From a virus: a DNA stretch of 64,000 bases. The first letter of the stretch is position 1; every line of letters begins with the position of its first letter. Both the position numbers and the translations under genes were made by a program. The DNA is taken from IMG/VR virus record IMGVR_UViG_3300045988_110853, positions 68,077 through 132,076 of that record; one strand, given 5' to 3'. The notes beneath the pieces are model-generated. The model was given only the letters and a program-made list of their open reading frames with translations. It was not told where the DNA came from and made no database searches. Shown here piece by piece: positions 9,693 through 64,000 of this stretch.

Positions 9693-9722
9693 GGCATATG
9701 CTCCCCTCTTTGAGCGAGTGGG

Positions 9723-31700: not shown

Positions 31701-34700
31701 ATGATGAGTGTCGTGAAAAGTATCAGCAAATGATTGATGAGTTTAATGAATACAAAGATGCCATAGATGCTTTGGATAATTTAACTAAAGGAACTCAAGA
31801 ATATCGTGATGCTTTAGAGGAAGCTAATCAAAAGGCTTTAGAATTAATCCAAAATAATCCTGATAAATTTAATAAAGATGATTATTATTGGGATGATAAT
31901 AAATTAGTTATTAAAGATACAGCTATGTCTCGTGTAGCTGAAACCAGTAGACAAGAGACTGTAGATTTATAGGCTACTTCTGCTATGGCTAATGCCAATA
32001 ATGCTCAAGCATAGGCAAATTTATAGAAAAAAAATCTTGTCGATACTGTCACTGGTTCTTTACGCAACACAACTGGCATAGATAAAACTATTGACGCTTA
32101 TTTAAATAGTGATAGAGTTGCTGTTGATAAGGAAGACTTAAAAGATATCCTTAATCTTGATAATGGTATAGACGATAAGGCTTTAATTAATGTCCTTTGG
32201 CGCAATATTGATGCTTTAAATGAGTTAAGAAATACCATGGATGGGGTTGAAACCTCTTTTGATCTTGCTAGTAAAACCGCAGCAAGAGCGCAATGGTCTG
32301 GTTCTGGTAAAGAAAATACTAAAGCTGGAAAAATGGCGCTTGAAGGTGGCGGAAGATTATATAATAATCTTTATGCTGAGGGAGAAAATACTGTTAAAGG
32401 TTATTCATTAGACACTAATTGGGCTGCCTATGAAAAAATGAATAATTTGAATTCTCTAAAAGGATATAAACGTTCTATTAAAAGCGATAAAGTTGAATAT
32501 AGTTATTATGATGAGAATGGTGAAAAGATAACTTAGGAAATCAGTAAAGAAGCTATTCAAATCGCGGCCGCAACCCAATATGCTAATGATAGGATTGGAG
32601 AAGCTTTAGATAGTTTATATCAAAATATTGCTAAAGCTAACAAAGATGGTCTTGATAGCGTAGGGAAATATTTATCAACAGAAAATTTTGATAATATGAC
32701 AAAAGGCGAGCTTAAACAATTTTAGGGATTAACTGATGATTAGTTAAGGGAATATGGAATTGATAAACAAGCTATCGAAGAAGCTAAAAAAGTTGTATTT
32801 GATGAAATTGATGGTCTTAATGAAGCTATGAGTGATTAGATCACGGTTGGAGTAAATAAGACTTTAAAAGAAAATATTTAGAATTTCGGCTCTGAAGGTA
32901 AAGATGCCTATATTAGTGCTATCAATCAAATTGGTGAATCTATTGATTGGAATGCTTTATCACCAGAATCTTAGGCTGAGGCTTGGAATAAGATTTCTAA
33001 TATTAATTGGTTTGATTTCGATGCTCAACGCCAAGCTGAAAACTTAATTAAAGAAATGGGCGGAGATGTTTCTACTCTTGGAGATAACTGGGATAAAGCT
33101 TTTAGTTAGATGCGTAAAGCTGGAGATGTTGTTCCAGTATTAACTGATATTAAAGAGCGTCTTGATAAAATAGATAGTATTACTAAAGACATGAAAATCG
33201 GTAAGATTTTAGAAAAAGAAGATTATGATACTTTAGTAAATTATAATAGTGAATTGGCAAGATATTTTACTATTTTATCTGATGGATCTGCTGTTTTTGT
33301 AGGTGATCCTCTCGATTTCCAGTAGATGATTAAATCCACTAAGCAAGATGAATTAAGTAGAACTATAAATGGATATCAAAATGCTATTGATTAGTATTAT
33401 GCGGGAGCTGAAGAACTTAAAAAAGCGGGTGGATTAGATTAGATTCGAGAAGTTGGTTCTGAAAATGTTAATAGCCAATTAGCATTTTTAAAGACTTAGA
33501 ACTACGATGAAACATAGATTTCTGATTGGATTGGTAAGCTTGCTAATTCTAGAGGATAGGATATTGATACTTTAAAAGCTATTGCTGAAGCAGTTAATGA
33601 AGTTGGTGATTCTTTCTTATCTAGCAAAGATAGTATAGAACAATATACAGCAAGTAGTCAATAGGCTATGAATGAATTGGCAATGACCACCGAAACTGCT
33701 CAAGAAGCAGAAGAAATGCTTAAAAATGGTAGTATCAATGAAATGGCTTATAATATGAGTGCCATGCAGCGTATGTCTGGTGAAAAATGGGAAAATTTAG
33801 ATTCATCTGAAGTAAATAAATATGCAGATTCTTTAATGAAGACAGCTAAAAGTTCTAAACTATTAAGTGATGAACTTGTAAATAATAAAGAGGCCGCTGA
33901 AGATGTAGCTCTTTATACTATAAAAATGAATAATGGCGTAGAGAAATTGAAAAATGGTTTTAGTGGATGGGCTGATATATTAAAGAAATCTGATTCTGCT
34001 TCACAGGAATATTATGATGCAATGATTGATATTAAAGATGCCATGTCTGATGTACTTGGGGTTTCAGAAGAATTTTTAACTGATGAGTTTATTACTAAAA
34101 ATTTAACTGATATAGGTAAGGCGGCAGAAGGTGACGCTGATGCTATAGATCGTTTGGCAGCCGCGGCAAGTAAAGATATTCTTTTAAATGTTGATTTTGT
34201 TTAGGATAATAAGCAATTACAAGATGTTTTATTATCAATGCATGATAAATTAGCGGCAGAAATTCCAGATATAAAAATTGGTACAACTTTTGAAGGTCAA
34301 GATGATTTAGTTAGATAGGCTCAAAATATTATCGGCACAGCGAAAATGACCGCCGAATAGGCAAATGCTTATTTTAGTGCCATGGGCTTTGAAACTAAAT
34401 TTAAAGTTGAACCTCAAGAAGTTGAATAGAGAACTCCAATAGTACATACTAGATAGTCAATAGTTGACGCGGGATTTAAAGACGGAGTTCCTTATTGGGA
34501 AACAACAACAGAAACTTGGAATGACGGATATAGTATTCAAAAAGGTTATGTTGATGCTATTGCTATGGCGACCTCTCCTGATGGAACGAAAACTCCGATT
34601 ATTGAAAGTATGACTAGTAAGCCTACTGGAATTATGAATAATAGTTCAAAGACTAATAGAGGTACTACAGGCTCAAGCAAAGGTGGAGGAAGTAAAAATA

Positions 34701-37627
34701 AACCAACCAAGGGAGACCTAACTAAAAAAAGCGATGTTGTTGATCGGTATAAAGAAATTACTGATAATATCAATGATACTACTCGTGCTTTAGACAAAGC
34801 TAATAAATCGGTAGATAGGCTTTGGGGTAAAGCTCATCTTGATGCAATGGCTAAAAGCAATAAGTTAACTTTAAAAGAAGTTGATTTATTAAAACAAAAG
34901 CAAAAAGAAGCTTAGGCTTATTTAAAAACAGATAAAGCTACTTTATAGCAAGCTGCGAAAAAAGCTGGAATTACTTTCACATTTGATGAAGATGGTGATA
35001 TTTCTAATTATACTGATTAGATGACTAAACTTTATAATTAGCTCATAGCTGCTTAGAATAAAGCAAATTCTTTTTCCACAAAAGATGCTCAAGATGCTTA
35101 TAAAGAAGCAACTTTAGACCCGATTCAAGAGAAAATCAATGAGTTGAAAGATGCTATTAAGCAATATGAAGATACAAGAGATTTAGTCGAAGAATTAACT
35201 GATGATATTCAAGATAAAATAAACGAATGGCAAGATAGAAATTATCAAATGCTTACTTATGAAGTTGAAATAAAAGTTCAATTAGATGAAAATGACACTA
35301 AAAAATTAGAATATTATTTCGATAAATTAAGTGATAATATTTATAAAGCTGCTGAAGCTCTTGGATATTTACAAGGTCAATTTGATCCAGTAATTAGTCA
35401 GTTAGGAACTTATGAAAATTTCTATGGCTAGTTAAATAGCGCTTATTCTAATGGAGAAATTTCTCAAGAAAATTATATTGAAGGCTTGTAGGATGTGTAT
35501 GACAGTACATTAGATAATTTAAATGCTTTGTAGGATTTAGATAAAGAAATGCTTGAATACTATGGTAATACTATAGATTTGGCAAATGATGAATTGTCTA
35601 AATATACAGATCATATGGAACATTTAACCAGTGTATTAGATCATTATCGCTCTATTATTACTTTGTTAGGTAAGGATAAAGATTATGATAAAGTCTTATC
35701 AGTTCTAAATGGAACTGCTTAGACTAAGAAAAATAACTTTGATGTTTCTAAACAATGGTATGAGAGTTTGAAACGTGAACGTGATGCTGCGGCCGCGGCC
35801 TTAGCCAATTCGACCGATGAAGCGGAACGTGAAGTGCTTCAAAAGAATTACGATGCTATATTAGCCGCGTTCGATGAAGCGGAAGAGGATATGCTCTCTA
35901 AAGCAGAAGAATATGGCGAAGCATTAAAAGAAATTCTTACTACGAAGATGGAACAAGCTGCTGATGAAATGAATAAGCAATTAAGCACCACTAAAGTAAG
36001 TATTAATGGTAATAATTTTAATATTTCTGGTTGGGATGCTTTAAATGATGCTTTAGATAGAATGTCTTCTTATCAAGATGAATATTTAACAAAAACTAAT
36101 CAGATTTATGAAATGAATAAACTACTTAATAATGTTAATTAGGCTATTGATAAGACAAATAATCAAGCAGCTAAAAATAGATACCAGCAATTTACCAAAG
36201 AAATTGAATAGTTAAGAGATAAAGATAAATTAAGTCAATTAGAATTAGAAATTGCTTAGGCTAAATATAAAGTGCTTGAAGCACAGATCGCATTAGAAGA
36301 AGCTCAAAATGCGAAATCTACTGTTAGATTACAACGCGATAATGAAGGTAATTTTGGTTATGTATATACCGCAGACCAAGAGAAAGTAAATGACGCACAA
36401 TAGGCTTTGGCAGACGCGGAAAATGACTTGTATAATATTCGTCTTAATGCGACAAATAAATACGGCCAGCAAAAACTCCAATATGAGAAAGAGCTGGCTG
36501 AAAAGCTCGCGGAACTTGATTAGAAGGCCGCGGAAGATGCAGTTTACCGCGAGACTACGTATCAGCAAGAGCGCGCTTTGGTAATTCAACAATATACTGA
36601 TTTGATTACTACTGCTGGAAATCTTTATGCGAAAGCACAAGAGGAAGATAGTAGAGTAGTTCAAGACGCTTGGGTAAATTCTTTTGATATCATTAAAGAT
36701 AATAGTAATAGTTGGAAAGATACTATTACTGAAAATACTAATATTATTAATGACACATTTAAAGAATGGCAAGATAGTATGGATGAAATCACTAAGATTG
36801 TTGGTGATGATTTAAAAGATACTCAATAGAAAGTTAAAGATGTCACCGATGAAAGTGATAAACTTTATCAAGAAGTATCTAATAAAGTTATTCCTGCTCT
36901 TGAAAGTGAATTAAGTTCTGTTCGTAGTGCAACTGAAGCCTGGGCGCAACATCGTCAGTAGTTGCTTGATACTATTAGAGCTTATGAAGAGCTTTTAGAT
37001 GCCATTCAAGCAACATTACGTGCTTAGAGCGGATTTGGTAATAGCGGTTCTAGCGGTGGAGATACTGACTGGGCGGCGATGATGGGTACTGTAGCTTATG
37101 GTTCCGCTCAATATAATCAGTATAAGAGAAACCGCGAGGAAAAAATTGCTAATGGTGGTAGTATTAATGAAGATACTACGGCTCGAGTTGATGCGTATTA
37201 TAAATTGTTAAGTGAAGGAAAAATCTCTGGTAGACTTCCTAACGGTAAGTATAGTTTTACTCAACTTACTGATTAGGAGTGGAGAGATTTAGTCGGATTT
37301 AGAAGTGGCGGTTATACCGGCACTTGGAACGATGATGGCAAGTTAGCTTTCTTACATCAGAAAGAATTAGTTCTTAATGCTGATGATACTGAAAATATGT
37401 TAGCTTCTATTCAATTAGTTAGATAGATTGCCAAACAATTAGATTTCAATAGTCAACAAATTTCTACTCTTTCATCTTCTGGATTTACTGTTAGTTCTCA
37501 AGATGGAACATTAGAATAGAATGTTAAAATTGAAGCTAGCTTCCCGAACGCAACTGATAGATATGAAATTCAAGAAGCATTTAATACATTAGTTAATGTA
37601 GCTTCTCAATATGCCAATAGAAAATAA
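28709..37627 (+). CDS. tail tape measure protein, about 2972 aa, with about 95 in-frame TAG codons
   Basis: A GAGAAAGGAG ribosome-binding site precedes it. Fifteen track ORFs (28781, 29180, 29417, ... 37079) all lie in frame 2, and a codon-by-codon walk found no TAA or TGA in frame. A TP901-family tape-measure core sits at about 29417-29929 (...DEIAGGLEKFAAVANTIGLSFDNAAAALATITATTRQSEDVVGTSLKTIFARIQG...). A TM segment reads MSATAALGLSLAGTILVVVAAAAALVLI. A GGSSGG-rich C-terminus follows. It ends in TAA. Confidence 0.8.
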
Positions 37628-41385: not shown

Positions 41386-44274
41386 ATGGTTAATAAATTA
41401 TATCCACCTATTATACCTGGAACTTTACCAGCATTTGTTGGTTAGGAAATTACCATTCCATTTCAAATGAATCGTGCGGTTAGTATGGTAGAGGTTTCAG
41501 GATTGTGTTATATAATTAAAACAGTATCAAGCAATGTTGTAATTGCTTAGGGAACAACCGCGGATTTTAGTCCAAGCAAAGTCCGCGGTTGCTTGGAACA
41601 AGGTTTTATTACTTTCAATATAAATCTTAAATCAATTACTAATAATGGAAAACCCATTCAATATAAATTGAATCCAGGTTAGTCTTATAAAATTCAATTA
41701 GCATATATTAATACTAGTGGAGTGGTTGGATATTATTCTACAGTTGGTATTGCTAAATGTACAACTAAACCAGCAGTTTATATAAAAGGTTTTGAAGATA
41801 ATTTAGTAGGAATAAACAAAACAGATTTTATTGGAGTATATAGTCAAAAAGAAAAAAATGATGATATTACTGAAAAAGTTTATTCATATAGATTTAAAGT
41901 ATATGATGAAAATGGTAATATTTTTGCTGATAGCGGGGAGCAATTACATAACTCAATTAATGATACAGAATTAAATGAAAGCTATGATAGTTTTGAATTA
42001 AATAAAGAATTACAAAAAAATAAAAATTATTTTATTCAATATTCTATAACCACTATTAATAACTATGAAGCAGAAAGTATTCGTTATCAAATTATTAATA
42101 GAGAAACTATTAATCCAGAATTACAAGCAACTCTTTCTGCGATTATGGATGAAAATAATGGATATGTAAAAATTAATTTAAATGGAATCCGTGATAAAAA
42201 GACAGGATTAGAGATTCCCGCGACAGGAGCTTTTGCTTTATTAAGAGCCAGTAGTGAAGATGATTTTAATACTTGGAACACGGTATTAAAATTTAAATTA
42301 GTTGGCGAAACTCCATCAAGAGAATTATATAGAGATTTTACTGTCGAGCATGGATTTAGTTATCAATACGCAGTTCAGCAATATAGTGATGAAACCGCGG
42401 TCCGCAGTAATAAAATCTTTTCTAATACTGTATATAGTATTTTTGAAGATAGTTTCTTATACAGTAATGGATAGTTATTAAAAATAAGATTTAATCCAAA
42501 AGTAAGTAGTTTTAAAATTAATACTCTTGAAAGTAAAACTGATACTATTGGAAGTCAATATCCTTATATTTTTAGGAATGGGAATACTTATTATCACGAA
42601 TTCCCGGTAAGTGGTTTAATTTCTTATCTTATGGATGAAGACCACTTATTTATGGATAAATTAGGTGATGATGAAATTAAGGATTTTACATCAACTGATT
42701 TAACTGATTATAATATCAATATAGAACGTCAATTTAAAACTAAAGCTTTAGAATTTTTGACTGATGGAGAACCTAAGTTATTTAAGTCTCCAACCGAAGG
42801 AAACTTTATTGTGCGTTTATTAAATGTAAGTTTGAGTCCAGAAGATAAATTAGGTCGTATGCTTCATACATTTAGCGGAACCGCTTATGAAATTGATAAA
42901 GTTAGCTTTGATAATCTTACTACTTATGGATTTATTGATGCAGACCCACCCGAAAGCGAAATTCTTAAATGGGATAGCATTTCTTTTGATGGATGGTATA
43001 AAATTAATGGGTATATTGATGATGTAAATACCTATATTGATAATTTAAAAGATGAAAATTTAACTTAGGCAGAAATTAATAAATTACAAGCAAATAAACA
43101 AACTTGTTTAGATAATTTATTACAAACATTAAGTTTTTATCCTATGTTTGAATTGCTTTATGACGGAAATCATTATAGTTTATAGACCAAAGATATTTTA
43201 GCTAATTCTCCTGCGATAACGATTCGATTTGAAGGCTTTGCTCCTGGAGATAAATTCAGTATTGATGGAGAAGAAATCGTTATTGGTATTACGGGTGCTT
43301 ACTTAATAGATCATGTTGCTCCAATTTATAGCGTTAAAGTAATTGAATTATCTGATGCGGGTTTACAACAAGGAACTATTGTGTATTCTTATTATGGTAA
43401 ACAAGCAAGTAAGTTTGATACTATTAATGACATTCAAGTAGCGGATTTGCCTTTAGAACAATACTATGGAACTGAAGGCAATATTTTAAATCTTTATAAT
43501 GATGATTTTAAATACAAAGTAACATAGATTTATTTCTTGCGTTTTACTAAACGTGATGTATAGAAATTATATACAAGTAATAAAGTTAATTTTTATACTA
43601 CTCCCGGCGGAGCAATTAGCGAAGAAGGAGAAAAAGATCATTCTGTAGAAATTAAACGTGCGGATTTTGATCCTACTTTAATTTATCATATTTATTTGGT
43701 AAGTCAAACTAAAGAACAAGATTACTATATTGATGGATATACTAAGAAAGAAATTTATGATTCTGGTGTATTAGTTAGTGAAAAGAATTGGGCTTGTAAT
43801 ATTAGAATAAATGAAGATGATAAACAAATTATTGGTATTGATTAGAAGAATGAATATTAGATTAAAGACTTAAGTGATATTACTTCTATTGAAATCGATC
43901 CAGGTGTTTTATGCGAATTATCAGTCCAACGTCAAGAAGTAGTTTATTCTTTTGAAAATGATAATCAAACTACTTATAGAATTTTTAATGGTTAGAATTA
44001 TATTACAACCACAATTTATCAATTAAAGCAAAATTGGTTAAGAGCTAAGAAGGCCTTAAAAGATTTTAAAGAATTAGAACAAGATAAAAGTAATCCTGAT
44101 TTCACTAAAGATGATCCATTCTATAATGTAAATTAGAATAATATTTAGACTTGTGTAAAAAATTATAATAATAAAGTAGCAGAATTACAAAAGACAGTTG
44201 ATGAAACATATACTTTATTTATTGATACTTTAAGAAAGGCGGCAGAGGATTATGAAGACTCAAAGACAATATGA
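41386..44274 (+). CDS. tail-tip or baseplate structural protein (962 aa; about 17 TAG)
   Basis: A TAGGAGGGATAAA ribosome-binding site precedes it. Track ORFs 41722 and 42631 share one frame. It ends in TGA. The call rests on position after the Dit-like gene. Confidence 0.55.
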
Positions 44275-46558
44275 TACCGACTTTCTTAAAAAATTAGATG
44301 AATTCAAACATAAAGTAGTTTATGCTCGTATTGAACTATTAACATTTGATGAATTGCCAATAGAGAGCATAGAGGGCAAGATAACCGGCGGATCGATTAA
44401 TATTGATGGGACATCTGCGGTCCGTCGGTCTTGTTCCCTTACTATGATGACTAATGAGAAATTATATAGACAATATTCTTGGGGTTTAAATTCTAAATTT
44501 AGTTTGGCTATTGGATTGGAAAATAAGATTGATAGTAAATATCCAGATATTATTTGGTTTAATCAAGGTATTTATTTAATTACTTCTTTTAATACTTCTC
44601 AAAGTGCTAGCTCATATAGTATATCTATTCAAGGTAAAGATAAAATGTGCTTACTGAATGGAGATTTGGGGGGAGATTTACCTGCTTCTATAGATTTTGG
44701 GTAGGAAGAAGTAATTACCTATACTTATAATAAACAAGATAATATAACCAAAGATAACTACATAAAAGGTAAATATTGCTATATTGTCAATAGTGAGGAA
44801 GAAGCTAAGAAACATAATGTTTATTATATTTCTACTTAGAATAAACAAACTACTTATTATGTTTTAGATGAAGAAGAATTTAGTAATAGAGAATATTATT
44901 TAAGAGAAAGTTATTTAAATTTAATTCAAATTCCTATTTAGACTATTATTAAAAAACTTCTTACAGTTTATGGCAAAGAAAAAGAAAGTAATATAGTTAT
45001 TAATGATTTAGATCAATATGGTTATGAATTATTGGCTAATAAATGTGATGAAACTATGTATTTCTTTAAAGACACGCAAACTAATAGAATAATTAATGCT
45101 TCAATAGGGACATTACCAGATTTATTAGATGTAAATAATGTAAAAATAACTGATACAAGCAATATTAAATTTGATAATTTAGATAGTAATAAACTATTGG
45201 ATGATGCTCCTGAGCCAACTAAAGTAAGATTAGTAAACAATGGGACTATTTATACTATTGTAAGTCGAACAACTAATGAAACAGTTGGTTATCGTATTTG
45301 TGATTTGGTTTACGCTGGAGATCTTATCACCAGTGTTGGTGAAAATGTGGCTAGCGTGTTAGACAAAATTAAAAATATGTTAAGTTGTTTTGAATATTAT
45401 TATGATATAGATGGTAGATTTATTTTCCAAAGAAAGAAATTTTATGAATATTAGTCTTGGACTAGTATAGTAAATAATTCTAACGGAGATAGTTATATTG
45501 AGCCTGCGGTTTATTCTTCATCTTCAATTTATTCGTTTAGAGACGGATAGACAATTATTTCTTTTAATAATACTCCACAAATTGCCAATTTAAGAAATGA
45601 TTTTTCTATTTGGGGATAGAGAGAAAGTGCGAGTGGGGCCGAAATTCCTATTCATCTAAGATACGCGATAGACCAAAAACCTATTTAGTATACTACGATT
45701 ATTGTAAATGATAATGATATAAATAGATATAAATCTACGATGTATAATAATAATATTTTTGATACTATGAATCCGCAATTAGAACAAAAAACTTATAAAA
45801 ATAAATGGTATTAGAGTGAAAATGAACCGGGGGTTATTTATTGCGACTGGCGTGAAGTTTTATATCGTATGGCCGTAGATTATTATCAATATAATTACGC
45901 AGATGATTTTGCCAGTAAAGTTGCGGCCGCGAATCCTAACCTTTATCCTTCTGGAATAACCGGTTATGAGACTTATTATGTAGATTTATTCTCCTTTTGG
46001 AGAGACATTTATGATTATGATAAGTTAGATTTCAAGGAAGAAGTAAAAAATAATCCTGAGAATTTAAATTTCTGGTTTGATTTTATTGGGGAAGAAAATG
46101 CGGATATTGCTAAATATTCAGTCCAATTAATTGGAGATAGAACAAAAGCAATTAATGATACTAATGTAAAAGTTATATGTTATAGAGATACACCCGATGT
46201 ATTATTTATGACATAGACTGATTATGATTCTATTATTTAGAATAACTATCCAACAGAAAGTGGATATATTTGGATTAATATTCCTTCTGGATATGATAAT
46301 TATTTTAAAATTAGTTCTAAGAGTAAAAGTGCGGTTGATGAGATTGAGGATTTGCTTTATACGACCGCTTACTGCGCGGAGAGCGTTTCAATTTCTACTA
46401 TTCCAGTTTATTATTTAGAGCCTAATAATAGAATTTATATTGAAGATAAAAGAAGTGGCGTTGAAGGAGAATATTTAGTTAATAAAATAACTATTCCATT
46501 AACTTATAATGGTTCAATGTCTATTAGTGCCACCAAAGCGATATCAAGAGTATATTAA
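44252..46558 (+). CDS. baseplate or minor structural protein (768 aa; about 14 TAG)
   Basis: Track ORFs 44252, 45032, 45869 and 46352 share frame 2. It ends in TAA. Confidence 0.55.
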
Positions 46559-51639: not shown

Positions 51640-54600
51640 ATGTCTAAGATACATTTTCGTCCTGTATAGGGTCCAGAAGAAAAGATAAAAGCATATCCAC
51701 AAACTGATGGATATTTTTATGTGGCGACAGATACCGGACGAGTTTATTTAGATACAGCGACTGAAAATAAAATACCAATAGGCTCAAGTGGCGTTTAGGT
51801 AATTTATGGAACTGAAAAAGAAGTCGGGATTGATTATGATGCGGATGAGAACCCAATCGGATATTCAATTCGTTTATCTAATTTATCAAGTTCTAATCCT
51901 CATATAAATGATTTAATTTTAAATAGCGATGGAGCATTTTATCGTATTAAAGGATTTAAATTAAATGATGATAAAGAAGAAGTCGCAAGTTGTGAAAAAC
52001 TATTAGCGGGCGGTGGAAGCCAAGATCAAGAAGTTAAAGTAAATGGTACTGTGTCTTTAACTTTAGACGGACCTACTGATGTGCTTAATGGCGAATCAGT
52101 AAGTGTAACCGCTCTTGTAAAATGTAGAACAATAAATGGAGAACCAGTTCTTGATTCTGTCGAAGGTACTTTAACTATTAGATAGAAAAAGAGCGATGGT
52201 TCTTGGGAAGATATTTATAGTGAAGCAAAAACCTATCAACATAATAAGCCAATTACTACTGATATTTCTGCTTATTTAAGAAATTCTTCTACACATGAAA
52301 TTGAGTTTATCGTTAGTAAAAATAGTGATCCTACTAATAACCATTTTTCTACTACTAAAAAGACTCAATTTGTAACAACTCATGAATTAACTCTTCAATG
52401 GCAAGAAAGTAAATTTAATAATAATTTGCCTTTTGATAATAGCCAAATTAATGTTTCTTGGCTAATGTCTAATAAAGTAAATAGTGCTATCGAAATTTAT
52501 TTTGATAATTATTTAATTTTAAATAGAGAATATAGTAGCACTAGTACTAGAGATGAAGATAGTTTTGCTATAACAAAAAATACTGTTATTATAGATACTA
52601 ATAATGATTCTACAATAACATTAGCAAATTATTTTCTTCATGGAGAACATACTATTAAAGCTAAACTTTATTTAGTTAATGGTGGCGAGAAAGGAAATGG
52701 AACTGATTTCATTGAAAAAGAAATTGTTATTTTAGATAGAAGCAGTAAAACTCCTTTAATTTGGACTGGTGATTTTAAAACAGAATATTATACCTATGAA
52801 ACTATTAGGATTCCTTTTAGAGTATATGACCCTAATGTAACGATTGCTAAAGTTAATTTGTATAAAAATGGTGTTTTATTAAGTACTCGTGAAGTTACTA
52901 ATTAGAATGAATGGCAATATTGGGAAATTACTAATCTTTCTGTTAATGATAGTTCTTATTATACAATTAAAGTAGGAACTGAACCATATGATTATTCTCG
53001 TAATTTTACTTTTATTATTAAAATTGATCCATTAAGAAATATGGAATTAGCTAGAAATAATGAAACAGATTTAAAAGTTAATTTTGTTGCTACTGGACGT
53101 TCTAATTCTGAAAGTAAACTAAGTCGTGAAACATTAGAAATTAAAGGAAAATATGCAGAATTTAAAAATTTTAATTGGTATAATAATGGTTGGATTTTTG
53201 ATGATAATAATACTACTTGTTTAAGGGTTAGTAATGGTGCTGAAGTCTCCATTCCTATTGGACAATTATCTTTTGATAATAGTTCTTCTACTCCTACACA
53301 TAGTATTGAAATTCAATTTAAAATTAGAAATCCACAAAATTATTCTAAGGTAATTACTAAATATACTCGTTATAAATCGAGCGATGAATCAGAGATTAAA
53401 AATTGGGTTGATGATGATGCCTGGAATGAATTTTAGAAACAAACTATTTATGTTAATTATGATGAATTTTTAACTAAAAAATATTTATTAGAGCATCCTG
53501 AAGCTCCAAGGTATGATGATTTAACTTATAATGGTTTATCACAAGTATTTAATTTAAATAATCTTGTTTGCGCTTATGGATCTCTAACAGAACCTTTAGG
53601 CATTTATTTTAGTCCACAAGATGCTACATTTACAGCAAATGGAGCTGATGAAACTGTGTCTGTGGATTTTGTTGAAGATGAAATGTTATATTTATCATTT
53701 GTTTATACGAATGCTAAAAGTGGACAAATAGGTGGAGATTCTAAATTATTAGAAATTTTCTTAAATGGAGTTTTAACTAGTGTCGCTCGTCGTGCTTCTG
53801 ATGCTTCTTCATGGACTATAAACTCTGATTCAATTAAATTTATGTCTAATGCTTGTGATATTGATATTTATAGTATTAGAGTCTATGATGTTAGTTTAAC
53901 TATTCCTGATGTGGTGTAGAATTATGCTTTTGATAAGAAAGATATTAACCAATGGGATTAGAAAGACTTATACGAATATAATACTGATTTAAATGATTAT
54001 TTGTTCTCTTACCGTAAAATGCTTGATTATAACATAGATCACAACGACAAACCTTTAATGCCTTATATTATTTTAAAAACAACTTAGAATAATAGTGAAA
54101 ATACAAATAATAGATTGCCTTATAGTAAAAGCGTAGAACCCCAAAAAGGAACTATGGAATTTGTAAATGTTCCATTAGATACTGCTTATGCAAAAGGCGA
54201 GCTTGATAAAATAGTTGAAAAAGAAGGATGGAAGCCTGTTATAGATAGTGATACCAATGAAATAAAATATACTGCGGTATAGAATTATTATTTACATCAT
54301 TGTCCTAGTTTTATAACTCTTTTTGATAAAGCAACTTTTTAGGTTCAGGGCACTTCTTCTCGAAATTATCCAAGACGTAATTATAAAGCTAAATGTAAAG
54401 AAGCTATGTTTATGAATAGAGGACCTTTTGAATCTATTTATAAAGAGGAAGAAGCCAATGATAATTTAAATACAAAAAGTAAAAGTTATCTTGAATTTTT
54501 CTATATGGACAATAATACTGTTGGTACTACTAAATTTACTTTAAAGATTGATTTTATGGAATCTTCTGGAGATTATAATAGAGGATTTGCTAATTTAGTT

Positions 54601-57600
54601 AATGAAACTTATTCTAAGCATCCGATAGAAGATTATCAAGATTCTTTTGATAAATATAACTTATATGGAGATGTTAATGATTATAGGACTTCTGTAAAAG
54701 GATATCCTGTTTTAGCATTCCATTGGCCCTCTACTAATGATAATGAATATAGTGAAAAAGATATTATTTATATCGGAAAATATAATATGTTGTTAGATAA
54801 AGGCTCTGATGAGTGTTATGGATTTAAGCCTAATAAAAAAATATTATAGAATTAGATTGAAGGGACTCCAAAAGTAAGAGATATTGTTGAGTGCTGGGAA
54901 TTTTAGAATAACTCAAGAACATACTGCTCTTTCCGTGATCCTTGGAATAGATATAAATTATCTTTTAGACCTCCATTAATGGATGATATTAATTCAGCAG
55001 GTTATTTGACTTCTGGTGGGGCTCCAATGGTTGCTGATTCTTTTGAAGTTAGATATAATTCTAATGATGATTTAATCGGTGATGTATTATTTAAATGTAC
55101 TTCTGCTGAAGCTACTGATGCTGATAAAATAATTAAATATACTGATGGTATAAATAATACTGTTCCTAGTAGATTAAAATCAGAAATAATTGTTGATGAA
55201 ACTACGGGAACTAAACATAAATAGTGGACTATTACAAATCCAGGCCAAGAACCTGTTATATTTGATATAAAGAAAAGAAAGACTTCTCGTGAGTTATTGT
55301 TAGCTTTAATGTCAAATTGGGAAGATGCTGTTAGTTGGGTTTGGAGTACTTGTTTAGATTGCAGTATCGATTTTGATGGAACTTTATATGAAATTCCATC
55401 AATGGGAAAATATGAAGAAATAGATTTAGCTTAGGCTAAATATGAAGTAAATAAATATTATATATTTGATAAAACTGATGAAAATGGCAATGACACTTAT
55501 AAAATTGCCACTGAAGGATTTAACTCAGAGGAAAAATATTATATTTATAATAATGATAGTAAAGCTTATAGTATAATTAAATTAACTGATGATGATAATA
55601 AGATTTATTAGATTAATAAATATTATATTTTATAGGACACAAATAATAAAATATATGTTTTAGACTCAGAAAAATTTAATCCATATATAACTTATTATTC
55701 TTTTATTGAAGATGAAAATTAGATTGATGATAAATGGTTATTATCTGCCCCAGTAACCTATAATTCAATTACTTATACTAAAGATAGCAAAGAATATCGT
55801 CAAGCAAAGTTTAAAAATGAATTAAGTAATTATTTTAATATTGAATATTTAGCAACTTATTTCTTAATGACTGAAATTTTTGAATGTTATGACTCTCGTG
55901 GTAAGAATGCAATGTTTGCTTCTTGGGGTCCACAGAAAGGAAATATTGAAAAATCTACGGGAATTTAGCATTATATTTGGTATCCTATTTTCTATGATAT
56001 TGACACTCAATTAGGTATTAATAACACTGGTATTCCATCATTTGAATATTACGTTGATGCTACCAAAGAAGGAAGTTATTCTACTAATGATAGTGTATTA
56101 TGGAATAATTTTTATACTTTCTTTGAAAGTAAAATTATTGATAAATATAAATAGTTAATGGGTCAAACAAATGAATCTTATAGTCCAAGTAAAGTTCAAC
56201 AAATTTTCAAAAGAGGAGAAAAAATTACTTCTAAAAAGAATGACATTGTTGATAAATGGTATAAAACTGATCCGAGTTTATTCCCAGGAAGCTATGTTGT
56301 ATAGGGCGAACGTCCTATCATTGCTTTAAATTTGGATGAAGAATACAAATATATTATTCCAACCAATTCAAAAGCTTTAGAAGCTCAAGGCGGAATTTTT
56401 GGCCGAATCAACGAAACAGGTCAATATGTTAGAGAAACTGATTAGTATTTTTACGCTTTATAGGGCGACCGCAATCTTTATCGTTCTCAATTCTTAACTA
56501 ATCGTCTTAATTATATTGACTCTTGGTTAACTCTTGATGAATATTCTGCTGATGGAGGCAGTAATAAAGTTAGAAGCCGTATTTCTGCTAATAATCCAGA
56601 TACTACTTCTGATAAATGGGTTGAAGGAGCTACTGAAGGGTCTGGATTAATCAATTCTCAATATTGGAAAGATAATGTTGAGTTTGGGACTAAAAATCAT
56701 ATGTTTGATGGTGAATATTGGATTAATATAGAACCAGCACGTAGAGCTTATGTTACTGTTGGAACAGATACATCTAATTTCCAATCTTAGAAGTATGATG
56801 GTTTAATTCCTGTTAGATTTGAAGCTCCTGACTTAAAAAGGGGCATTATGTCTAGCCCCAATTATCGTGAATAGTTGTATTATATTTATGGTTTAGAGTA
56901 GATGAAATCTCTTGGAGATTTAAGTAAGTTATATTTTTAGGAATTTTCTTTAAATGGTAAAGCAAGTAAATTAGTTGATTTATTATTAGGATATGATGGA
57001 CTCTCAGAAGAAGGAGAAACATATCATAATAATAAAGTTAATAATTGGAGTTTTCCAAGTGAGGGAATGCCATTATTAAAAGAAATGAATCTCTGTGGAA
57101 TTCAATTTACAAATCCAATGTCTTTAGATTTAAGCAAAAGTGAAAAATTAGAAAACTTTAGAGATACTGATTCAAATATTTCTAAAGTCCAATTTGCTGA
57201 AGGTGTTGCTTTAAATACTTTATATTTAACTGATTATACAAATTATTTAAGTTTAATTGAAGCAAATCTTTTAACTAAATTAATTACTAGTTATGTTCGT
57301 CCAACTCTTAATACCCTTACTAATCGTCTCGAAGTCGCAGAAGAAAATAAAGGATTATACATTAAAGGTTTAACTGATACTAATGATAATTCCATTAAAA
57401 CGAATATAAAAACTTTTGATATTCGTGGGGGTAATTTAGATTATTACTCTTATGAGTTACTAAGACGTTATTACATTGGGTGTGAAAATAGTAAATTAAC
57501 TGGATGTGGAGTTAATTTAACTAATGTTTAGTGGAGTCCTTATAGACTATTAAATGATGATAAAGTTGAATTAGATAGTGTTAATATTGAGTATTATAAA

Positions 57601-59346
57601 GATAACGGGCATTTTCAATTAGAAAAAATTAACCCAGAAGATGTAAGTAAAATTACTCCAAGCGAAATAAAAAATAATTTAATTTATTATTATGATAATA
57701 GTGTAAATGGATATGATAATATTCACAATAAAGTTATTGATTATACTTTATTACGTAGTTTATATGATAAAGCTCCTGTTTGTTTTAAAGGTATTAATTA
57801 GATTTATCCTAATATAACTGGTATTATTTATATTGAAAATACTCAAGAGATAGAAGAACACGTAATTCAAGAAGAACTATAGAGTATTTATCCTAATTTA
57901 ACTATTTTTGTAAAAAATGTTAAGAAAGAGTATTCTGCTAAGTTTGTCCTTGAGCAAGAAGACGCAAATGGAGTATTAACTCAAGAAATTTTAAAAACTT
58001 AGAAATTACCTTTATTAAGCACCAAGTTCTTTGATAATCCTACTGATTCTTCAAGTGAAACTTATATCTCTTTTGGTAGTTTACAAGAAAAAATGCCAAC
58101 CTATAACTTTAAAGGTTGGGAAGACGATACTGGTGAATTAGTAATTACAGTTGGAAAAGATGTAAATGAAAAAGATGCTGTTTTAAAAGACAATTGGGGT
58201 TCTTTATCCTTACAATCTAATAAAATAGATTATATTTTTAAAGCAAGATTTGAGCGTAAGTCTTATACAATTACTTTTGTTAATGGCGACCGCGTTATTA
58301 ATGATTCAACTGTAAAGAAAGTATTTAATTATGGCGAAAGAATTACAGTTCCAGAGGAATTTTATTACTTTAATAATACAGAAGTAACAGATTTACCAAA
58401 CGGAGAGGATTCTTTAGAATGGACTTGGAGATAGACAGGATGGGCTGATAAAGAAGGAGTTAAAATTGATTTAACAAGATAGTTAGCTTATGCTGACCGC
58501 GAATTCTATGCTGTTGGAGAACCAGTTAGTGTTTATGATAATATCTTAGTTAATGATTCCACTCATAAATATTATGATATTATAAATTCTGATGGAGAAT
58601 TATCATTTGTAATGACTGATTTAGCTAAGAATTTAAAGGGTAAAATTACTTTACCTACAACTTATAATGGTTAGCCAATTACAAGAATTAGATATAGTCA
58701 AGTTAATCCATCCGCTTCTGTGGGTATCCAAGTAAATCCTAATATTACAGCAGTATTTTTTGCTCCAAAAGACAGTAATAAAATTTCTGTAATAGATGAT
58801 TATGCTTTTACTTTAGATAGTGGATTGGAATATTTTTAGTTTAGTGACTGTTTAAAGAAAATTGGTATTAAGGCATTTTATCAATGTCCTTTAAGTCGTA
58901 ATAATATAATTCCTTATTCTTCTTCTACGGAAGGTTTAACTTTTGGAGCTCAAGCGTTCTATCAAAGTAAGATGGGCTCTTATTCTCCTTATAATTTAAT
59001 TATAGAGGGATGTAAAGATGGTATTCTTAACTTTGATGTAAATGCATTCTCTGGTTAGACAATTTTAAATATGTCTGGTAATTAGTTTAAGGGCTATACT
59101 GGTGCTATTCAAGTATAGATTGGTACTAATAAACATCCAATTAAATAGATTACAGCAGATAGTTCTGGACATGTTTTCACTCCTCGTTAGACTGGCATGC
59201 CTACTGTCGCTAATGGATATACAGGTCGTTTTAGATATTATTATGTTGCTAGTTATGGTGAAAGTGTTAAGAATACTTTACATAGAATTTATGAAGCAAT
59301 GATATCTAATAGAGCAAACTTTGAAGAAGAACCTATTGTAAAGTGA
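51640..59346 (+). CDS. giant multidomain virion protein of about 2568 aa (about 70 TAG). It contains a BspA-type leucine-rich-repeat region and a segment resembling the CotH-kinase fold.
   Basis: An AAAGGAG ribosome-binding site precedes it. Seven track ORFs (52426 ... 58093) all lie in frame 1. The stretch 55201-57120 was verified codon by codon. BspA-like LRR segments read ...LEYFQFSDCLKKIGIKAFYQCPLS.... LRR segments also lie at about 57.0-57.5 kb. A CotH-like segment reads ...GKNAMFASWGPQKGN...HYIWYPIFYDIDTQLGINNTG. It ends in TGA. Confidence 0.6.
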
Positions 59347-59355
59347 GGATAAAAT

Positions 59356-59556
59356 ATGGAAAAAGAAATTGTTTATAGATATATGGGTTCTAATGGCATT
59401 ATTGAATCTTCTATATAGTTAGCAGGAGTGCCTGCGACTAAATTATATAGATTAATTACGGATTATAATAAAAAATTAACGAGAGATGGAAAAGAATTCT
59501 TTTCCATCTCTCCTTTAGTTCCCGAAGATGAATTAGAAGAATGGCATGAGGTTTAA
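59356..59556 (+). CDS. small protein (66 aa; 1 TAG)
   Basis: A GTGAGGATAAAAT ribosome-binding site precedes it. It ends in TAA. A terminator follows at 59583-59635. Confidence 0.4.
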
Positions 59557-59582
59557 ATAGGCCAGAATACATTGATTTAAAT

Positions 59583-59635
59583 ATAAAAAAAATTAGGTTA
59601 AATAGGAAAAGAAACTATTTAACCTAATTTTTTTA
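59583..59635 (+). terminator. hairpin ATTAGGTTAAATAG..CTATTTAACCTAAT plus a T-run
   Basis: Read directly. Confidence 0.6.
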
Positions 59636-59652
59636 GAAAGGAAGAGATAGAT

Positions 59653-61335
59653 TTGATAGTTAAAAATGATAGTGTTATCGAACAAGCTAAATGGGAAGAG
59701 CTTCAAAAGAAAATCAATACTTTAGCTAAAGATAACTCAATAAAAAACGTTAATGGAAAAATCGTTGAAATAAAATCTATTGAAGACTATTATAGTAATA
59801 TCACTGGTATCGTTCAAATGAAGAAATTAGATCCATCTGTTCTTCGTATACCTTTAGATGAACCTATTATAAATATAAATGCTGATACTCGTCAAATTGA
59901 ATTAACTAAAGAATTTGGAAAAACGCAATTACTTACTGTTGAAAACGATCATTTGGCAGAAACAATTTATTTTCAAATTGATAGATATTTTGATTTACAA
60001 GATTTAGCGGCTGATGATATTAAAATTTATATTCAGTATTATTTAAACGATCAAGTTCAAGGTTATTCTGAAGCTATTTGTCCTGATATTGGAACTGCTG
60101 GAAAATTGATTTTTGGATGGCAAATTAGTGATGAAGTGACTAGTGAATCTGGTACTTTATAGTTTTCTATTATTTTCTTTAAAAAGAATCCAAAAGATAA
60201 TAATAATTTAATGTATGTATTTAATACATTACCAGCGCAAATGGTTATTAATAAAACTTTAGACATTGATGAAGATTTAATCACTGCTTAGCCTGTTGAT
60301 TATTTAACTGGTTATTTAGAAAGCCTAATTGATTCAAAGAAATCTGCTGGTTTTGGTGTCCCTGATAATGTTGCTTTCTTGGCAAGTATTTTAAATGATA
60401 AATCTGTTTATTTGACAGGGGATAAATTATATGCTTTAGCCTATAATGATACTTTAAATAATCCAGATAATACTACTATTGAGTATAAATGGATTTGTAA
60501 TTATAGAGGAACTAATACTGAATTAAAAAGCGGTATTGGCTATGAATATAAGAAAATTATTGAAGATAATAGTATTTTTAGTGGAGATATGGTTTATAAT
60601 GAAAAATTAACTTATTTCACTAAAAATGGAGATTCTTATATTAATAGTAGTAGTGATATTAATCTTGAAAACTACACTGCCAAGAAGAATGATCTCTATC
60701 TAAAAGTTCAGTATTGCGAAGTTGATGGATGTGGAAGCTATAGCGTCACCGCATTCGGCGCAACCGCCAATCAAGTAAGCAAAGAAGTTAAATGGACTGG
60801 ATTGGCTATTTCTGTTGAAGGAATTAGTGAAGATTTTAGAATTGTTCTTGATCCTTCTCCTGATAATGGATGCTATTATGGTTCTTCTAATACTATTACT
60901 GCTGTTGGATAGAATGATAAAGGCGTCCAGTGTACTTATCTTTGGAAAAAGAATGGTTCTGATTTTAGTACTGATAAAACTGTAACTTTAACTGAAGAAG
61001 ATAATTACACTTTATCAGTTCATGGTTATAAAAATAAAGATAGTATCGATTATCCTACAATTAGTTTCACTAATTATTTTGACCCAACTAATTTAGTTCC
61101 TATCATTGATAAAAAAGTTAAAATTGAGAATGGAAAATATATTGTTACAGTTACTAATACTAGTGAATTAGGCAATGGTATTTATGAATATCAATGGAAA
61201 AATGCGTAGGGTGCTACTTTAAAGACAACTTCTGATAATTCAACAGAAGTAGATGAAAATATTACTCAAGGAGCTGTAATTATCCAGAAGGGTGAAAGAA
61301 AATCGCAACCAGGAACCTTTAAGATTGAGGGGTAA
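59653..61335 (+). CDS. structural protein, fibre or baseplate, with Ig-like repeats (560 aa; 4 TAG)
   Basis: A TTG start follows GAAAGGAAG. Track ORFs 59653 and 60379 share one frame. It ends in TAA. Confidence 0.5.
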
Positions 61336-61340
61336 GATAA

Positions 61341-61961
61341 ATGATAACTAATCCAACTGATTATTATAGTGTTTTACATCAAATACAAGATGAAAATTTT
61401 CCAGTTAAATATCCCGCTCTTCCCGCCCCAGAAGATGAGAAGTTGGTTTAGATAGATTTAAATTCAAGAACTATTAGTAATGAAAATAATTATATCACAG
61501 TTGAAGGCGATCACGCTGCTGAAATTATTTATTTTGAAATAGATAGATATTTTGATACTATGGATTTAACTAATATGATGTGTATTATTTAGTATATTAA
61601 TGCTGATAATGAAAAACGCATTTATCCAGTCCCATATTATGATACTTTAACTCATAAAGATAAAATTATTTTTCCTTGGGTTTTAAATTATAGTGCTACT
61701 AAGAAATCTGGCACTTTGAATTATATGATAACTTTTTATAAAATAGAAAAAGATTCTAATAATTTATTATATAATTTAAATACGTTACCAGCAAGCCTTT
61801 AGGTTTATTCTAAACTTAATTTAGATTCTATTGTAAAAGAAGAAGATTATTATGTAATTGATGATAGTCAAGTAGTACAACAAATTTGGGAGCGTTTAGC
61901 GCGTTTAGAAGGATTTGTTGGTGGTAATGGGTTGGATGTTTATTGGATTGTTCTCGAATAA
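61341..61961 (+). CDS. paralogue of the N-terminal domain of the upstream gene (206 aa; 3 TAG)
   Basis: It shares the motif GDHAAEIIYFEIDRYFD with NDHLAETIYFQIDRYFD of the upstream gene. It ends in TAA. A terminator lies at 61975-62005. Confidence 0.45.
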
Positions 61962-61974
61962 ATAAACCAAATGG

Positions 61975-62005
61975 TATAGAATTATTAATTTAATTCTATA
62001 CCATT
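61975..62005 (+). terminator. hairpin GGTATAGAATTA..TAATTCTATACC
   Basis: Read directly. Confidence 0.5.
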
Positions 62006-62034
62006 AATTTATAGAAAGGAGTTATTGAAGATCG

Positions 62035-63006
62035 ATGGCTCTATTTAAAATTTTAAAAGGTGATTCAGATAGATTAGTCACCTATGATGCGAAAGCGGTT
62101 AATGGGAAAATACCTTTTCCATCTTTAGATTCTGGAAAAACTTTATTTACAACAGTAGAAAGCACTCCTATTACAGAGGGTTACGCTTATTTTACAGAAG
62201 ATACTCATAAATTTTATATTGATACTGCGGATAAAAGATTAAATTTATATACCGACCATGCGGATTATGCTACTTATGATGAAAATGGTCGTAATTTAGC
62301 AGAATTGTCAGAAGTATCTTATGAAAATATTGATGATACTGGAGGGCAAATTGGAGTAATAAATATTAATGGTATTGAATATCCTGTTACTTGTCCTGCT
62401 GATATTGCTGGAAAAACTATAAATAAATATACTTTTGATGTTAGCGCAGATTAGACAGTTTTTAATATTCCTTTTAATTTTAGTGATAGTAGTACACTTA
62501 CTCTTTATTATAATGGCATTATGATTTAGGAAACAGAAAATTATACTATAAATGGTAATACTATTACTTTAAATGGTTGGAAAGGTGAGTAGGGAGATTT
62601 TCTAACCGTAATGGGTATTGAAGGAGCAGCGGGAGTTAATGTTGATGAAGATATTGTTCGTATCCAAACTGAATTAAATAAAGCTTTAGAAAAAATTAAT
62701 TCTTCTACCGAAAATTTAATTTACAAAAATAAATCTAATATATTAACTAAAGATGGTAAAATTACTATGGATAGTACTTATATCCCAACGCAGGACATGG
62801 ATTTAGTAACTAAAAAATACGTTGACAATGCCACTCCTCCTACAGTTGGAACTACTACTGATTATTCTATTTATATTGGATCAACACAGCCTGCTTCTGG
62901 CACCGCGCCTTTAATATGGATAGATACAACTGCTAAAACTGGCACTTTTAAATATAGAACTTCTACCACAGGCACTTGGACACCTGTTCCCGTGGCTTGG
63001 ATTTAA
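62035..63006 (+). CDS. tail fibre or structural protein (323 aa; 3 TAG)
   Basis: An AAAGGAG ribosome-binding site precedes it. Track ORFs 62035 and 62611 share one frame. It ends in TAA. Confidence 0.5.
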
Positions 63007-63040
63007 TATAAATTTATTGTAAGAAAAAGGAGATAATATT

Positions 63041-63451
63041 ATGGATCAAAATTTGATTAATCAATTATTTCAAGTATGTTTGATTCCTATGCTTGGCGCT
63101 TTAACTACTTTTATAGTTATTTGGATTAAAGCAAAAAGTGCGGAATTACAAAAGAAAACTGATAATGACATCTTAAATAAATACGTTTAGATGGCTACTG
63201 ATACAATTACCAACTGTGTTATTGCCACTAATCAAACTTATGTAAATTCTCTTAAAGAGCAAGGTAAATTTGATGAAGCCGCACAAAAAGAAGCCTTTTA
63301 GAAAACTTATCAAGCAGTATTACTTATTTTAAGTGATGATGCTAAAGAATATTTAAATAATGCTTTTGGTGATTTGAATAAATATTTACAAGAAAAGATT
63401 GAATCTACAGTAAATAATTATCGTACTCCAAGTGATGATTTAAAACAATAA
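63041..63451 (+). CDS. putative holin (136 aa; one N-terminal TM helix and a charged C-terminus; 2 TAG)
   Basis: An AAAAAGGAGA ribosome-binding site precedes it. The sequence starts MDQNLINQLFQVCLIPMLGALTTFIVIWIKAK.... It is the last gene of the late operon and ends in TAA. Confidence 0.35.
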
Positions 63452-63461
63452 AAATAAGGGA

Positions 63462-63490
63462 GACATTCTTAATTGAATGTCTCCCTTATT
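63462..63490. terminator. bidirectional hairpin AAGGGAGACATTC..GAATGTCTCCCTT plus a T-run between convergent genes
   Basis: Read directly. Confidence 0.65.
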
Positions 63491-63494
63491 TTTT

Positions 63495-64000
63495 TTATCT
63501 AAATGGATTTTTCCATCGTCGATTAATTTCTTCATATCCTTTTTTAGGAAAATATAAAACTTCACCATTTTTAAAAGTTAAATTATCTTTATTCATTATT
63601 TTAATTTGATTTAAATTAATAATTAAGCTCGGTGGAATAAATACAAAATCTGGATGATAAACTAAAGTCCCTATATAATTTTCAAAAGAAGTTTTTAGAG
63701 TTTTACTATTTAAAACTTCATCTTCTAAATGACAACATAAGTTTCGTTTTTGAATATCAGCATATAAAACTTTATTTAAATCAATTTTTATTTCTCCTTC
63801 TGGAGTATCTAAATATTTATATTCACGTCTTTTTTCTTCTCTAACTTCATGTAAAATAGAAAAAATTTTTTCTTCACTAACCGGTTTCTTGACAAAATTA
63901 AATGCCTTTACTTCATAAGAAGCTACTCCATAGCTTGTTTGAGAGGAAACAAAAATTATTTTTCCAATATACCCGCTTGTCCTTAAAAGATGAGCTATTT
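63495..64000 (-). CDS. LytTR-family (AgrA/ComE-like) response regulator, C-terminal part; the gene continues past the window edge
   Basis: The receiver-domain end reads ...KIIFVSSQTSYGVASYEVKAFNFVKKPV. The LytTR-like DNA-binding domain reads ...IKIDLNKVLYADIQKRNLCCHLEDEVL...DFVFIPPSLIINLNQI.... It is convergent with the holin-like gene, and a hairpin at 63462-63490 lies between them. Confidence 0.55.
   Translation of the reverse strand, partial: IAHLLRTSGYIGKIIFVSSQTSYGVASYEVKAFNFVKKPVSEEKIFSILHEVREEKRREYKYLDTPEGEIKIDLNKVLYADIQKRNLCCHLEDEVLNSKTLKTSFENYIGTLVYHPDFVFIPPSLIINLNQIKIMNKDNLTFKNGEVLYFPKKGYEEINRRWKNPFR

Follow-up and report, generated by a model that had tools for sequence, protein, structure and literature searches.

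A giant protein with a CotH-type kinase fold and a BspA-type leucine-rich repeat end in the tail region of a TAG-recoded phage

Introduction

Giant phage proteins that carry CotH-like kinase motifs are known as targets of diversity-generating retroelements (DGRs). Wu et al. 2018 reported DGR targets of ~2,000 amino acids (aa) with weak CotH and Laminin_G_3 motifs (PMC5758913), and Roux et al. 2020 a viral target of 2,284 aa with a CotH-like kinase domain (bioRxiv 10.1101/2020.04.01.020958). Benler et al. 2021 noted the fusion of a CotH kinase domain with a hypervariable C-type lectin as “currently unstudied” (PMC8008677), and variable proteins of >2,000 aa with CotH active-region motifs beside motifs for carbohydrate binding as well as leucine-rich repeats (LRRs) were described by Macadangdang et al. 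2024 (bioRxiv 10.1101/2024.11.15.621889). The class that includes the DGR target of Hankyphage, which is described as a globally ubiquitous Bacteroides phage, corresponds to category f1 (Wu 2018), PC_00012 (Roux 2020), and “domain group 3” (Macadangdang 2024). The gene of Hankyphage is taken to be a tail fiber, and its DGR is active (PMC12135933). Here we analyze a related gene, referred to as the giant gene, in a 64,000-nucleotide stretch of viral DNA (IMG/VR record IMGVR_UViG_3300045988_110853, positions 68,077 to 132,076). This whole stretch is called the window, and positions are given in its coordinates.

The giant gene (51640-59346, plus strand) encodes, with a probability that we put at roughly 60%, a modular tail-fiber or host-recognition protein with a conserved kinase-fold module that is predicted to be probably catalytic. 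A preliminary description of the locus had held that LRR plus CotH architectures were not known from phage fibers. This claim of novelty fails because giant CotH/LRR phage tail proteins are already a documented class, comprising the four published descriptions above and a collinear homolog in Hankyphage. The giant protein adds to this class, and its architecture is itself not new. What is distinct here is the BspA-type LRR end, the lack of a DGR seen near the 3' end, an insertion in the kinase fold, 40 TAG codons for glutamine (Gln), and a phage related to phAss-1.

Results

One gene in which TAG stands for glutamine

Judged from its reading frame and alignments, the segment 51640-59346 is one single real gene in which TAG stands for Gln. 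It runs from an ATG through 2,568 sense codons to a terminal TGA, the closest in-frame TAA on its 5' side is at 51634, and the product is estimated from its length at ~290 kDa. All 40 internal stops are TAG; an internal TAA or TGA was looked for and none is present. Since TAA and TGA together make up 4.8% and 16.7% of the codons in the two remaining frames of this DNA, the chance of a TAA/TGA-free frame this long is at most 10^-55. Gln is encoded by 45 CAA, 2 CAG, and 40 TAG codons. When 1.84 billion representative proteins were searched by profile, a homolog, P0057 (2,581 aa), was recovered that aligns with residues 1-2568 of the giant protein at 63% identity; the gene for P0057 contains 36 in-frame TAGs and comes from a 52.9-kb contig whose gene order matches that of the window. 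Across 27 aligned full-length homologs, residues facing the giant-gene TAGs are Gln in 211 of ~990 cases versus a Gln background of 3%. Gln is invariant at the TAG-encoded aa 1608 and 1745 and occurs at aa 1754 in 22 of the 27 homologs, and the Hankyphage protein, which is encoded in the standard code, also has Gln opposite aa 1608. The single gene of ~2570 aa and 7.7 kb that the preliminary description had obtained by TAG read-through is thus borne out.

Were the TAGs true stops, the region would instead consist of short genes or a pseudogene. Read in the standard code, its longest open reading frame (ORF) is 159 aa, and a scan of the 64 kb with ARAGORN found no tRNA, and hence no suppressor tRNA; one may lie elsewhere in the genome, and some TAG-recoded phages have none (PMC10607447). 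Such a fragmented region is at odds with the length of the open frame, with homology to full-length proteins that spans every TAG, and with the invariant Gln that TAG faces, including in a standard-code phage. The recoding pattern is also the same in all late genes and in the related contig, in-frame TAGs being present in every large plus-strand gene from 11961 to 63006, and related phAss-1 phages are documented TAG-to-Gln recoders (PMC10607447). We regard the probability of such an artifact as negligible.

A CotH-type kinase fold with an intact catalytic signature

Residues 871-1671 are a CotH-type atypical kinase fold that is split by an insertion of ~230 residues and whose catalytic signature is intact. 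The CotH-like block quoted in the preliminary description is present (ATYFLMTEIFECYDSRGKNAMFASWGP at aa 1405-1431 and HYIWYPIFYDIDTQLGINNTG at aa 1444-1464), but the domain proves much larger than this block. The fold was recognized as that of CotH-type atypical protein kinases by comparison with a homolog model, and Pfam CotH was matched by six of nine homologous domains (best E 3.2e-5), with no other family recurring. A tblastn search with a compact family member led to two “CotH kinase family protein” entries, both passing Pfam CotH: a Hymenobacter protein (177.8 bits) and a protein of Lactobacillus gasseri pHL70_2 (86 bits). Alignment of these certified CotH proteins to the family profile (hmmsearch, filters off) paired the following motifs: 1) V-Q-G-T-S-S..Y-P-R-R-N-Y of the giant protein with (Q/R)G.SS..PKK.Y; 2) D1418-S-R-G-K-N1423 with D...(K/R)N; and 3) Y-D1453-I-D1455 with (W/Y)DLD. 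Kinase-region profiles from two alignments found no match among PDB sequences, even at E 10. In the Hymenobacter protein, the catalytic-loop Asp and the first Asp of WDLD are 23 residues apart, which equals the D228-D251 distance in Bacillus subtilis CotH, so D1418 and D1453 are likely the counterparts of D228 and D251, a correspondence drawn from motif and spacing and not from direct alignment. The D228Q and D251A mutants of B. subtilis CotH are both inactive (PMC7821199).

Conservation of the domain was assessed in an alignment of 154 trimmed domains with identities down to ~25-30%. The residues that are 100% conserved, all of them present in the giant protein, are QGTSS, Y910, N914, K969, D971, N980, R1016, K1054, and N1091, together with D1418, R1420, K1422, N1423, Y1452, D1453, and D1455. 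The conserved core in compact relatives comprises ~400 residues, corresponding here to aa 895-1100 and 1368-1628, and the copy in the giant protein therefore bears a large insertion (~230 residues). Within this insertion, aa 1213-1235 form a conserved helix, and aa 1258-1381 make up a beta-rich insert with NKYYI-type repeats. Searches with the beta-rich insert (aa ~1245-1385) gave no Pfam match and no PDB sequence match; it resembles cell-wall or glycan-binding repeats. At 55411-55782, the beta-rich module consists of ~20-residue “NKYYI...Y.L” hairpin-like repeats, and in the homolog model it has a predicted local distance difference test score (pLDDT) of 80-95.

A kinase fold in a fiber could serve solely as a rigid scaffold or a ligand-binding domain, with no catalysis. 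Lectin-like and LRR binding modules flank the fold, the fold tolerates large surface insertions, and the domain would be exposed on a virion with no supply of ATP. Fungal CotH proteins, moreover, act as host-binding invasins. Pseudokinases, however, usually lose catalytic residues, and the absolute conservation of these residues (D, K/R, and N of the catalytic loop and the two Asp of D-x-D, throughout the 154-domain alignment) argues against a pure scaffold. A pseudo-enzyme that only binds is accordingly given a poor chance.

The same invariance of catalytic residues is also expected of a Ser/Thr kinase whose activity falls within the infected cell: it would phosphorylate itself or other tail proteins while virions are assembled and would be only structural on the finished virion. 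Bacillus CotH offers a parallel: it is a structural part of the spore coat, and its kinase activity gives assembly its pattern (PMC7821199); it phosphorylates CotB and CotG while it is itself incorporated into the coat. Action in the cell would solve the ATP problem, ATP being available there. Set against this assembly role, these phages are not known to have phosphorylated tail proteins, and Ser-rich substrate-like repeats were not noticed nearby, although no systematic search for them was made. Many CotH-family proteins are also extracellular, as exemplified by the Hymenobacter protein with its Por_Secre_tail sorting domain. A kinase acting in assembly ranks as the main rival to a tail-fiber enzyme, although we consider it unlikely.

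Attachment end, distal modules, and their exchange

The motif (T/P)xGY.Y..TDT...Y.DTA is common to the giant protein (51685-51759) and to the tail-fiber-like protein of phrog_2710 (62155-62229), with a BLASTP match of E 7e-5 over 25 residues. As this motif suggests, the N-terminus is probably the attachment end and may be a docking element for the tail tip that both proteins have in common. Downstream of it lies a candidate lectin-like region, and Laminin_G_3 has been reported for the giant DGR-target family (PMC5758913). PHROG matches of the giant protein are limited to phrog_14959 (match starting at aa 651) and phrog_24896, both of unknown function, and an NCBIfam scan of the closest homolog and of a compact homolog returned nothing.

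The distal third of the protein is composed of an LRR-like solenoid, two InlB-type B-repeats, and an LRR of the BspA/TpLRR type. An LRR-like peptide, FQFSDCLKKIGIKAFYQC, is present at about aa 2398-2415, and a Pfam scan of the whole protein matched LRR_5 (PF13306) with an E of 7.7e-4. LRR_5 matches P0057 with 28.3 bits and 15 of 18 full-length homologs overall (best E 8.4e-13). A profile built from the 18 proteins retrieved solved BspA-type LRRs (4gt6, 1.6e-21; 4fs7, 2.4e-21; pneumococcal PcpA, 1e-13; Treponema TpLRR, 3.4e-9), and similarity to solved BspA/TpLRR proteins was found in both profile and fold. A direct-repeat search of 56000-64000 found no repeat resembling a template repeat/variable repeat (TR/VR) pair, only a paralog repeat and a chance match; reverse transcriptase genes were not searched for, and the window ends at 64000. 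Across the family the C-terminal modules vary and include LRR_5, PARCEL repeats with B-repeats, and Kelch-like repeats.

These distal modules also bear on whether the protein, or a fragment of it, could enter the host with the DNA and phosphorylate host proteins. Roux et al. speculated that CotH-like DGR targets might manipulate host signaling (bioRxiv 10.1101/2020.04.01.020958), and phage-encoded kinases exist (PMC8008677). An injected effector is nevertheless very improbable because the protein is a multi-domain fiber of ~290 kDa that ends in adhesin-type surface repeats. Its C-terminal module is swapped or diversified in the manner of receptor-binding proteins, the gene occupies a tail-fiber position after the tape measure and tail genes, and nothing points to ejection.

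Distribution of the family and genomic setting

The family profile matched 3,744 protein clusters (50% identity) at E ≤1e-3, of which 1,156 reach E ≤1e-30. Members are mostly 2,000-2,900 aa long, with the kinase-fold domain at ~aa 800-1700. A member lies 3' of the genes for the tape measure and Dit in the Heliusvirales phage NatCom_3357, and another lies immediately 5' of holin and endolysin in a prophage remnant. On a bacterial contig (10001-13869), a compact member of 1,109 aa has downstream of it an LRR_5 protein of 179 aa, then a holin and an Amidase_2-LysM endolysin; cellular genes (MerR, MatE) come directly before the compact member, and this stretch looks like a prophage remnant that keeps only fiber and lysis genes.

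Within the window, the giant gene belongs to a late structural operon and lies in the tail/tail-fiber module, between tail genes and tail-fiber-like genes (Table 1). The tail and tail-fiber PHROG matches on either side agree with the tail-fiber region named in the preliminary description. The nearest large terminases are those of Enterococcus phages VRE9_4 and H1 (47%), Geobacillus virus E3, and phAss-1 (44.7%), and an origin from a crAss-like or Lak phage was rejected on this basis. The phage is most likely a large siphovirus related to the phAss-1 group that reads TAG as Gln in its late genes.

The window changes in character at ~11.5 kb. Positions 1-11500 have a GC content of ~0.40 and small ORFs mostly on the minus strand, with in-frame TAGs rare in long stop-to-stop frames, while 11961-64000 has a GC content of ~0.29 and genes all on the plus strand that are rich in in-frame TAGs. 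This split in composition and coding fits standard-code early genes and recoded late genes, although a 10-point GC jump is unusual. A prophage-host junction at ~11.5 kb was tentatively rejected, 1-11500 looking more like the standard-code early region of the phage. Downstream of the giant gene, the adjacent paralogs 59818-61335 and 61341-61961 have a common N-terminal block (TVENDHLAETIYFQIDRYFD / TVEGDHAAEIIYFEIDRYFD) and contain 60-nucleotide direct repeats at 59935 and 61497 with 80% identity; a PHROG scan gave no match in either paralog.

Table 1. Features of the giant gene and its surroundings in the window (HMM, hidden Markov model)
Feature	Position	Strand	Basis or details
N-terminal module, aa 1-125, motif GYFYVATDTGRVYLDTA	51640-52014	+	BLASTP and conserved N-terminus in 18 full-length homologs
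Span of 40 in-frame TAGs	51667-59190	+	First at 51667, last at 59188
aa 175-567, collinear with Hankyphage aa 383-748	52162-53340	+	BLASTP E 4e-11
Candidate concanavalin-A-like lectin region, aa ~470-790	53047-54009	+	Weak: DUF6250 E 0.023; Laminin_G_3 in 2/18 homologs
CotH-like N-lobe, aa 871-1147	54250-55080	+	Family HMM envelope; QGTSS at 54346-54360, K969, D971
Insertion splitting the CotH domain, aa 1148-1383	55081-55788	+	Missing from compact homologs
CotH-like C-lobe, aa 1384-1671	55789-56652	+	Catalytic loop D1418-S-R-G-K-N1423 at 55891-55908; Y-D1453-I-D1455 at 55996-56004
Middle solenoid of short beta-strands, LRR-like, aa ~1747-1929	56878-57426	+	Homolog model; family-wide, including Hankyphage
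Alpha/beta domain, aa ~1957-2123	57508-58008	+	Homolog model only
Two Listeria-Bacteroides (InlB B-repeat-like) repeats, aa ~2155-2297	58102-58530	+	
BspA/TpLRR-type leucine-rich repeat domain, aa ~2312-2506	58573-59157	+	LRR_5 and family profile
C-terminal strand-helix-strand cap, aa 2527-2568	59218-59343	+	Homolog model
Sigma-factor-like gene	11961	+	PHROG match
Large terminase	14253	+	PHROG match
Portal	16462	+	PHROG match
Virion structural protein	25644	+	PHROG match
Probable tape measure, 2,972-aa ORF, 60 in-frame TAGs	28709-37627	+	Length compared with phAss-1 group
Tail protein	44252-46558	+	PHROG match
Tail-fiber protein (phrog_2710)	62035-63006	+	PHROG match

Discussion

A role in the tail fiber is supported by the position of the giant gene, the N-terminal motif in common with a tail-fiber-like gene, homology to a DGR-diversified fiber, and the exchangeable C-terminal head. 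Through its N-terminus the protein would attach to the tail tip, and its C-terminal LRR and B-repeat modules would bind a ligand on the host surface, an arrangement in which we place considerable confidence and which makes the receptor-binding adhesin of the preliminary description a plausible role. The family would hold the N-terminal two thirds constant while exchanging the C-terminal binding module, with the BspA-type LRR here, a DGR-diversified C-type lectin in Hankyphage, and PARCEL or Kelch-like repeats elsewhere as alternative heads. The kinase-fold module may then act during adsorption by binding a host-envelope component or transferring phosphate to it, so that the module would be a virion-borne enzyme module beside an adhesin and not a passive spacer. 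That the module is catalytically competent and acts on the host envelope at adsorption is a speculative suggestion, to be held tentatively. A classical kinase on the virion is disfavored by the absence of extracellular ATP. A more far-reaching possibility, to which we attach little weight, is a new class of virion-borne enzyme, marked by the invariant CotH active site: a tail-fiber phosphotransferase that would act at adsorption on a polymer or protein of the host envelope, or would draw on a phosphate donor other than cytoplasmic ATP, with LRR, lectin, or DGR-diversified modules providing the targeting.

Several points weigh against the tail-fiber reading with its kinase-fold enzyme. A Pfam scan of the whole giant protein gave no CotH match, and aa 1380-1700 scanned alone scored 18.2 bits (E 0.0019), below the gathering threshold of 23.8, a low score that we attribute to the insertion and to divergence; the CotH likeness named in the preliminary description thus stands on homologs, profile, and models but fails the Pfam test on the protein's own sequence. 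A similar qualification applies to the BspA/Treponema-type LRR, which is upheld for the C-terminus by the family profile, while the C-terminal segment itself reached 25.0 bits with LRR_5 (E 1.8e-5) against a gathering threshold of 27.7. The structure models are those of the homologs P0057 and P0029 and not of the giant protein itself, the homolog that provides the structure evidence being 67% identical to it in the kinase region and 59% in the C-terminal third, and the kinase-region model is of moderate quality (pLDDT 68, predicted template modeling score, pTM, 0.70). The upstream neighbors of the giant gene include no recognizable Dit or Tal annotation, and a virion-exposed kinase would have no obvious ATP supply. 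The literature found on phage CotH proteins reports no substrate, nucleotide binding, or activity, and the giant protein is known here from its gene alone and not from particles.

For the Hankyphage, a particle mass spectrometry data set (PMC12135933, Table S6) lists WP_225659534.1, a “Minor tail protein” with 15 peptides and 10% coverage in the >250 kDa fraction, between “Tail fiber protein” and thymidylate synthase. This entry fits, and may be, the 2,245-aa CotH/DGR-target protein; if the two are the same, it would be the first evidence of particle association for the family.

Among gut phages, giant tail proteins with a kinase fold are very widespread, and the Hankyphage DGR target is one among them. 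The conserved core exists here with no detected TR/VR repeat, in a stop-codon-recoded phage, and with a BspA-type LRR as its exchangeable tip. Finding the core with a different tip supports a general layout in which a constant, enzyme-like core carries a swappable binding head, and makes the giant protein a non-hypervariable member of the family that is suited to biochemistry. Since standard-code annotation breaks the gene into fragments of at most 159 aa, such proteins are likely to be undercounted. If a surface phosphotransferase activity were true, thousands of gut phages would alter the host surface by phosphoryl transfer and not by the usual depolymerase chemistry.

Comparison with known systems

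The Hankyphage p00 DGR-target “tail fibre” (BK010646.1, 31489-38226; 2,245 aa) is encoded 3' of the baseplate hub and minor tail protein genes, with the DGR variable repeat at the 3' end of the gene itself. It resembles the giant protein in four collinear BLASTP segments (aa 175-1654 here versus aa 383-1403 in Hankyphage). Both exceed 2,000 aa, belong to the tail module, and combine an N-terminal region, a lectin-like region, a CotH domain with the same invariant motifs, and an LRR-like segment. Identity between the two is only ~22-25%, however, and they differ at the C-terminal end, where Hankyphage has a C-type-lectin variable region diversified by its DGR and the giant protein has B-repeats and a BspA-type LRR. 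The 230-residue insertion in the kinase fold of the giant protein is a further difference, and so is the setting: Hankyphage is a standard-code transposable phage of Bacteroides, whereas the phage described here is TAG-recoded and its terminase is nearest to those of phages of Firmicutes.

Other phage proteins with CotH domains include Bacillus phage G gp353, the “CotH kinase protein” of Siphoviridae sp. ctHAs12, and the “spore coat protein-like protein” of the crAss-like cr124_1. In L. gasseri pHL70_2 (NZ_CP072659.1, 34924-37494), an 856-aa “CotH kinase family protein” with a canonical Pfam CotH domain and no insertion is encoded just downstream of a “phage tail protein”, from which a single short hypothetical gene separates it, and has a weak match to the baseplate-protein domain BppU_N; CotH domains thus occur in small phage tail proteins as well. 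All four are much shorter than the giant protein, and no LRR was reported for them in this comparison. In the comparison with Bacillus CotH itself (PDB 5JDA; PF08757), identity is 14%; unlike that of Bacillus CotH, the domain of the giant protein lies within a fiber of 2,568 aa, is interrupted by an insertion, and possesses an extended helical region at its C-terminus. The BspA/TpLRR-type proteins compared (TpLRR, 6MLX; PcpA, 4CP6; BACOVA_04585, 4FS7; FAEPRAA2165_01021, 4GT6) are bacterial surface proteins, whereas the LRR here is the distal module of a phage protein.

The phages of the phAss-1 group are human-gut siphoviruses of 133-136 kb that read TAG as Gln in late genes; their tape measures are ~3,150 aa long, and their hosts are conjectured to be Eubacteriales (PMC10607447). 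Both phAss-1 and the phage described here recode TAG in structural genes and have a tape measure of great length. They differ in that pectate-lyase tail fibers of ~1,070 aa, and not a giant protein, are described for phAss-1, and in that phAss-1 has three suppressor tRNAs (PMC10607447) and the 64-kb window has none. Within the wider phAss-1 group, ctxMM9 holds fragments homologous to the giant gene.

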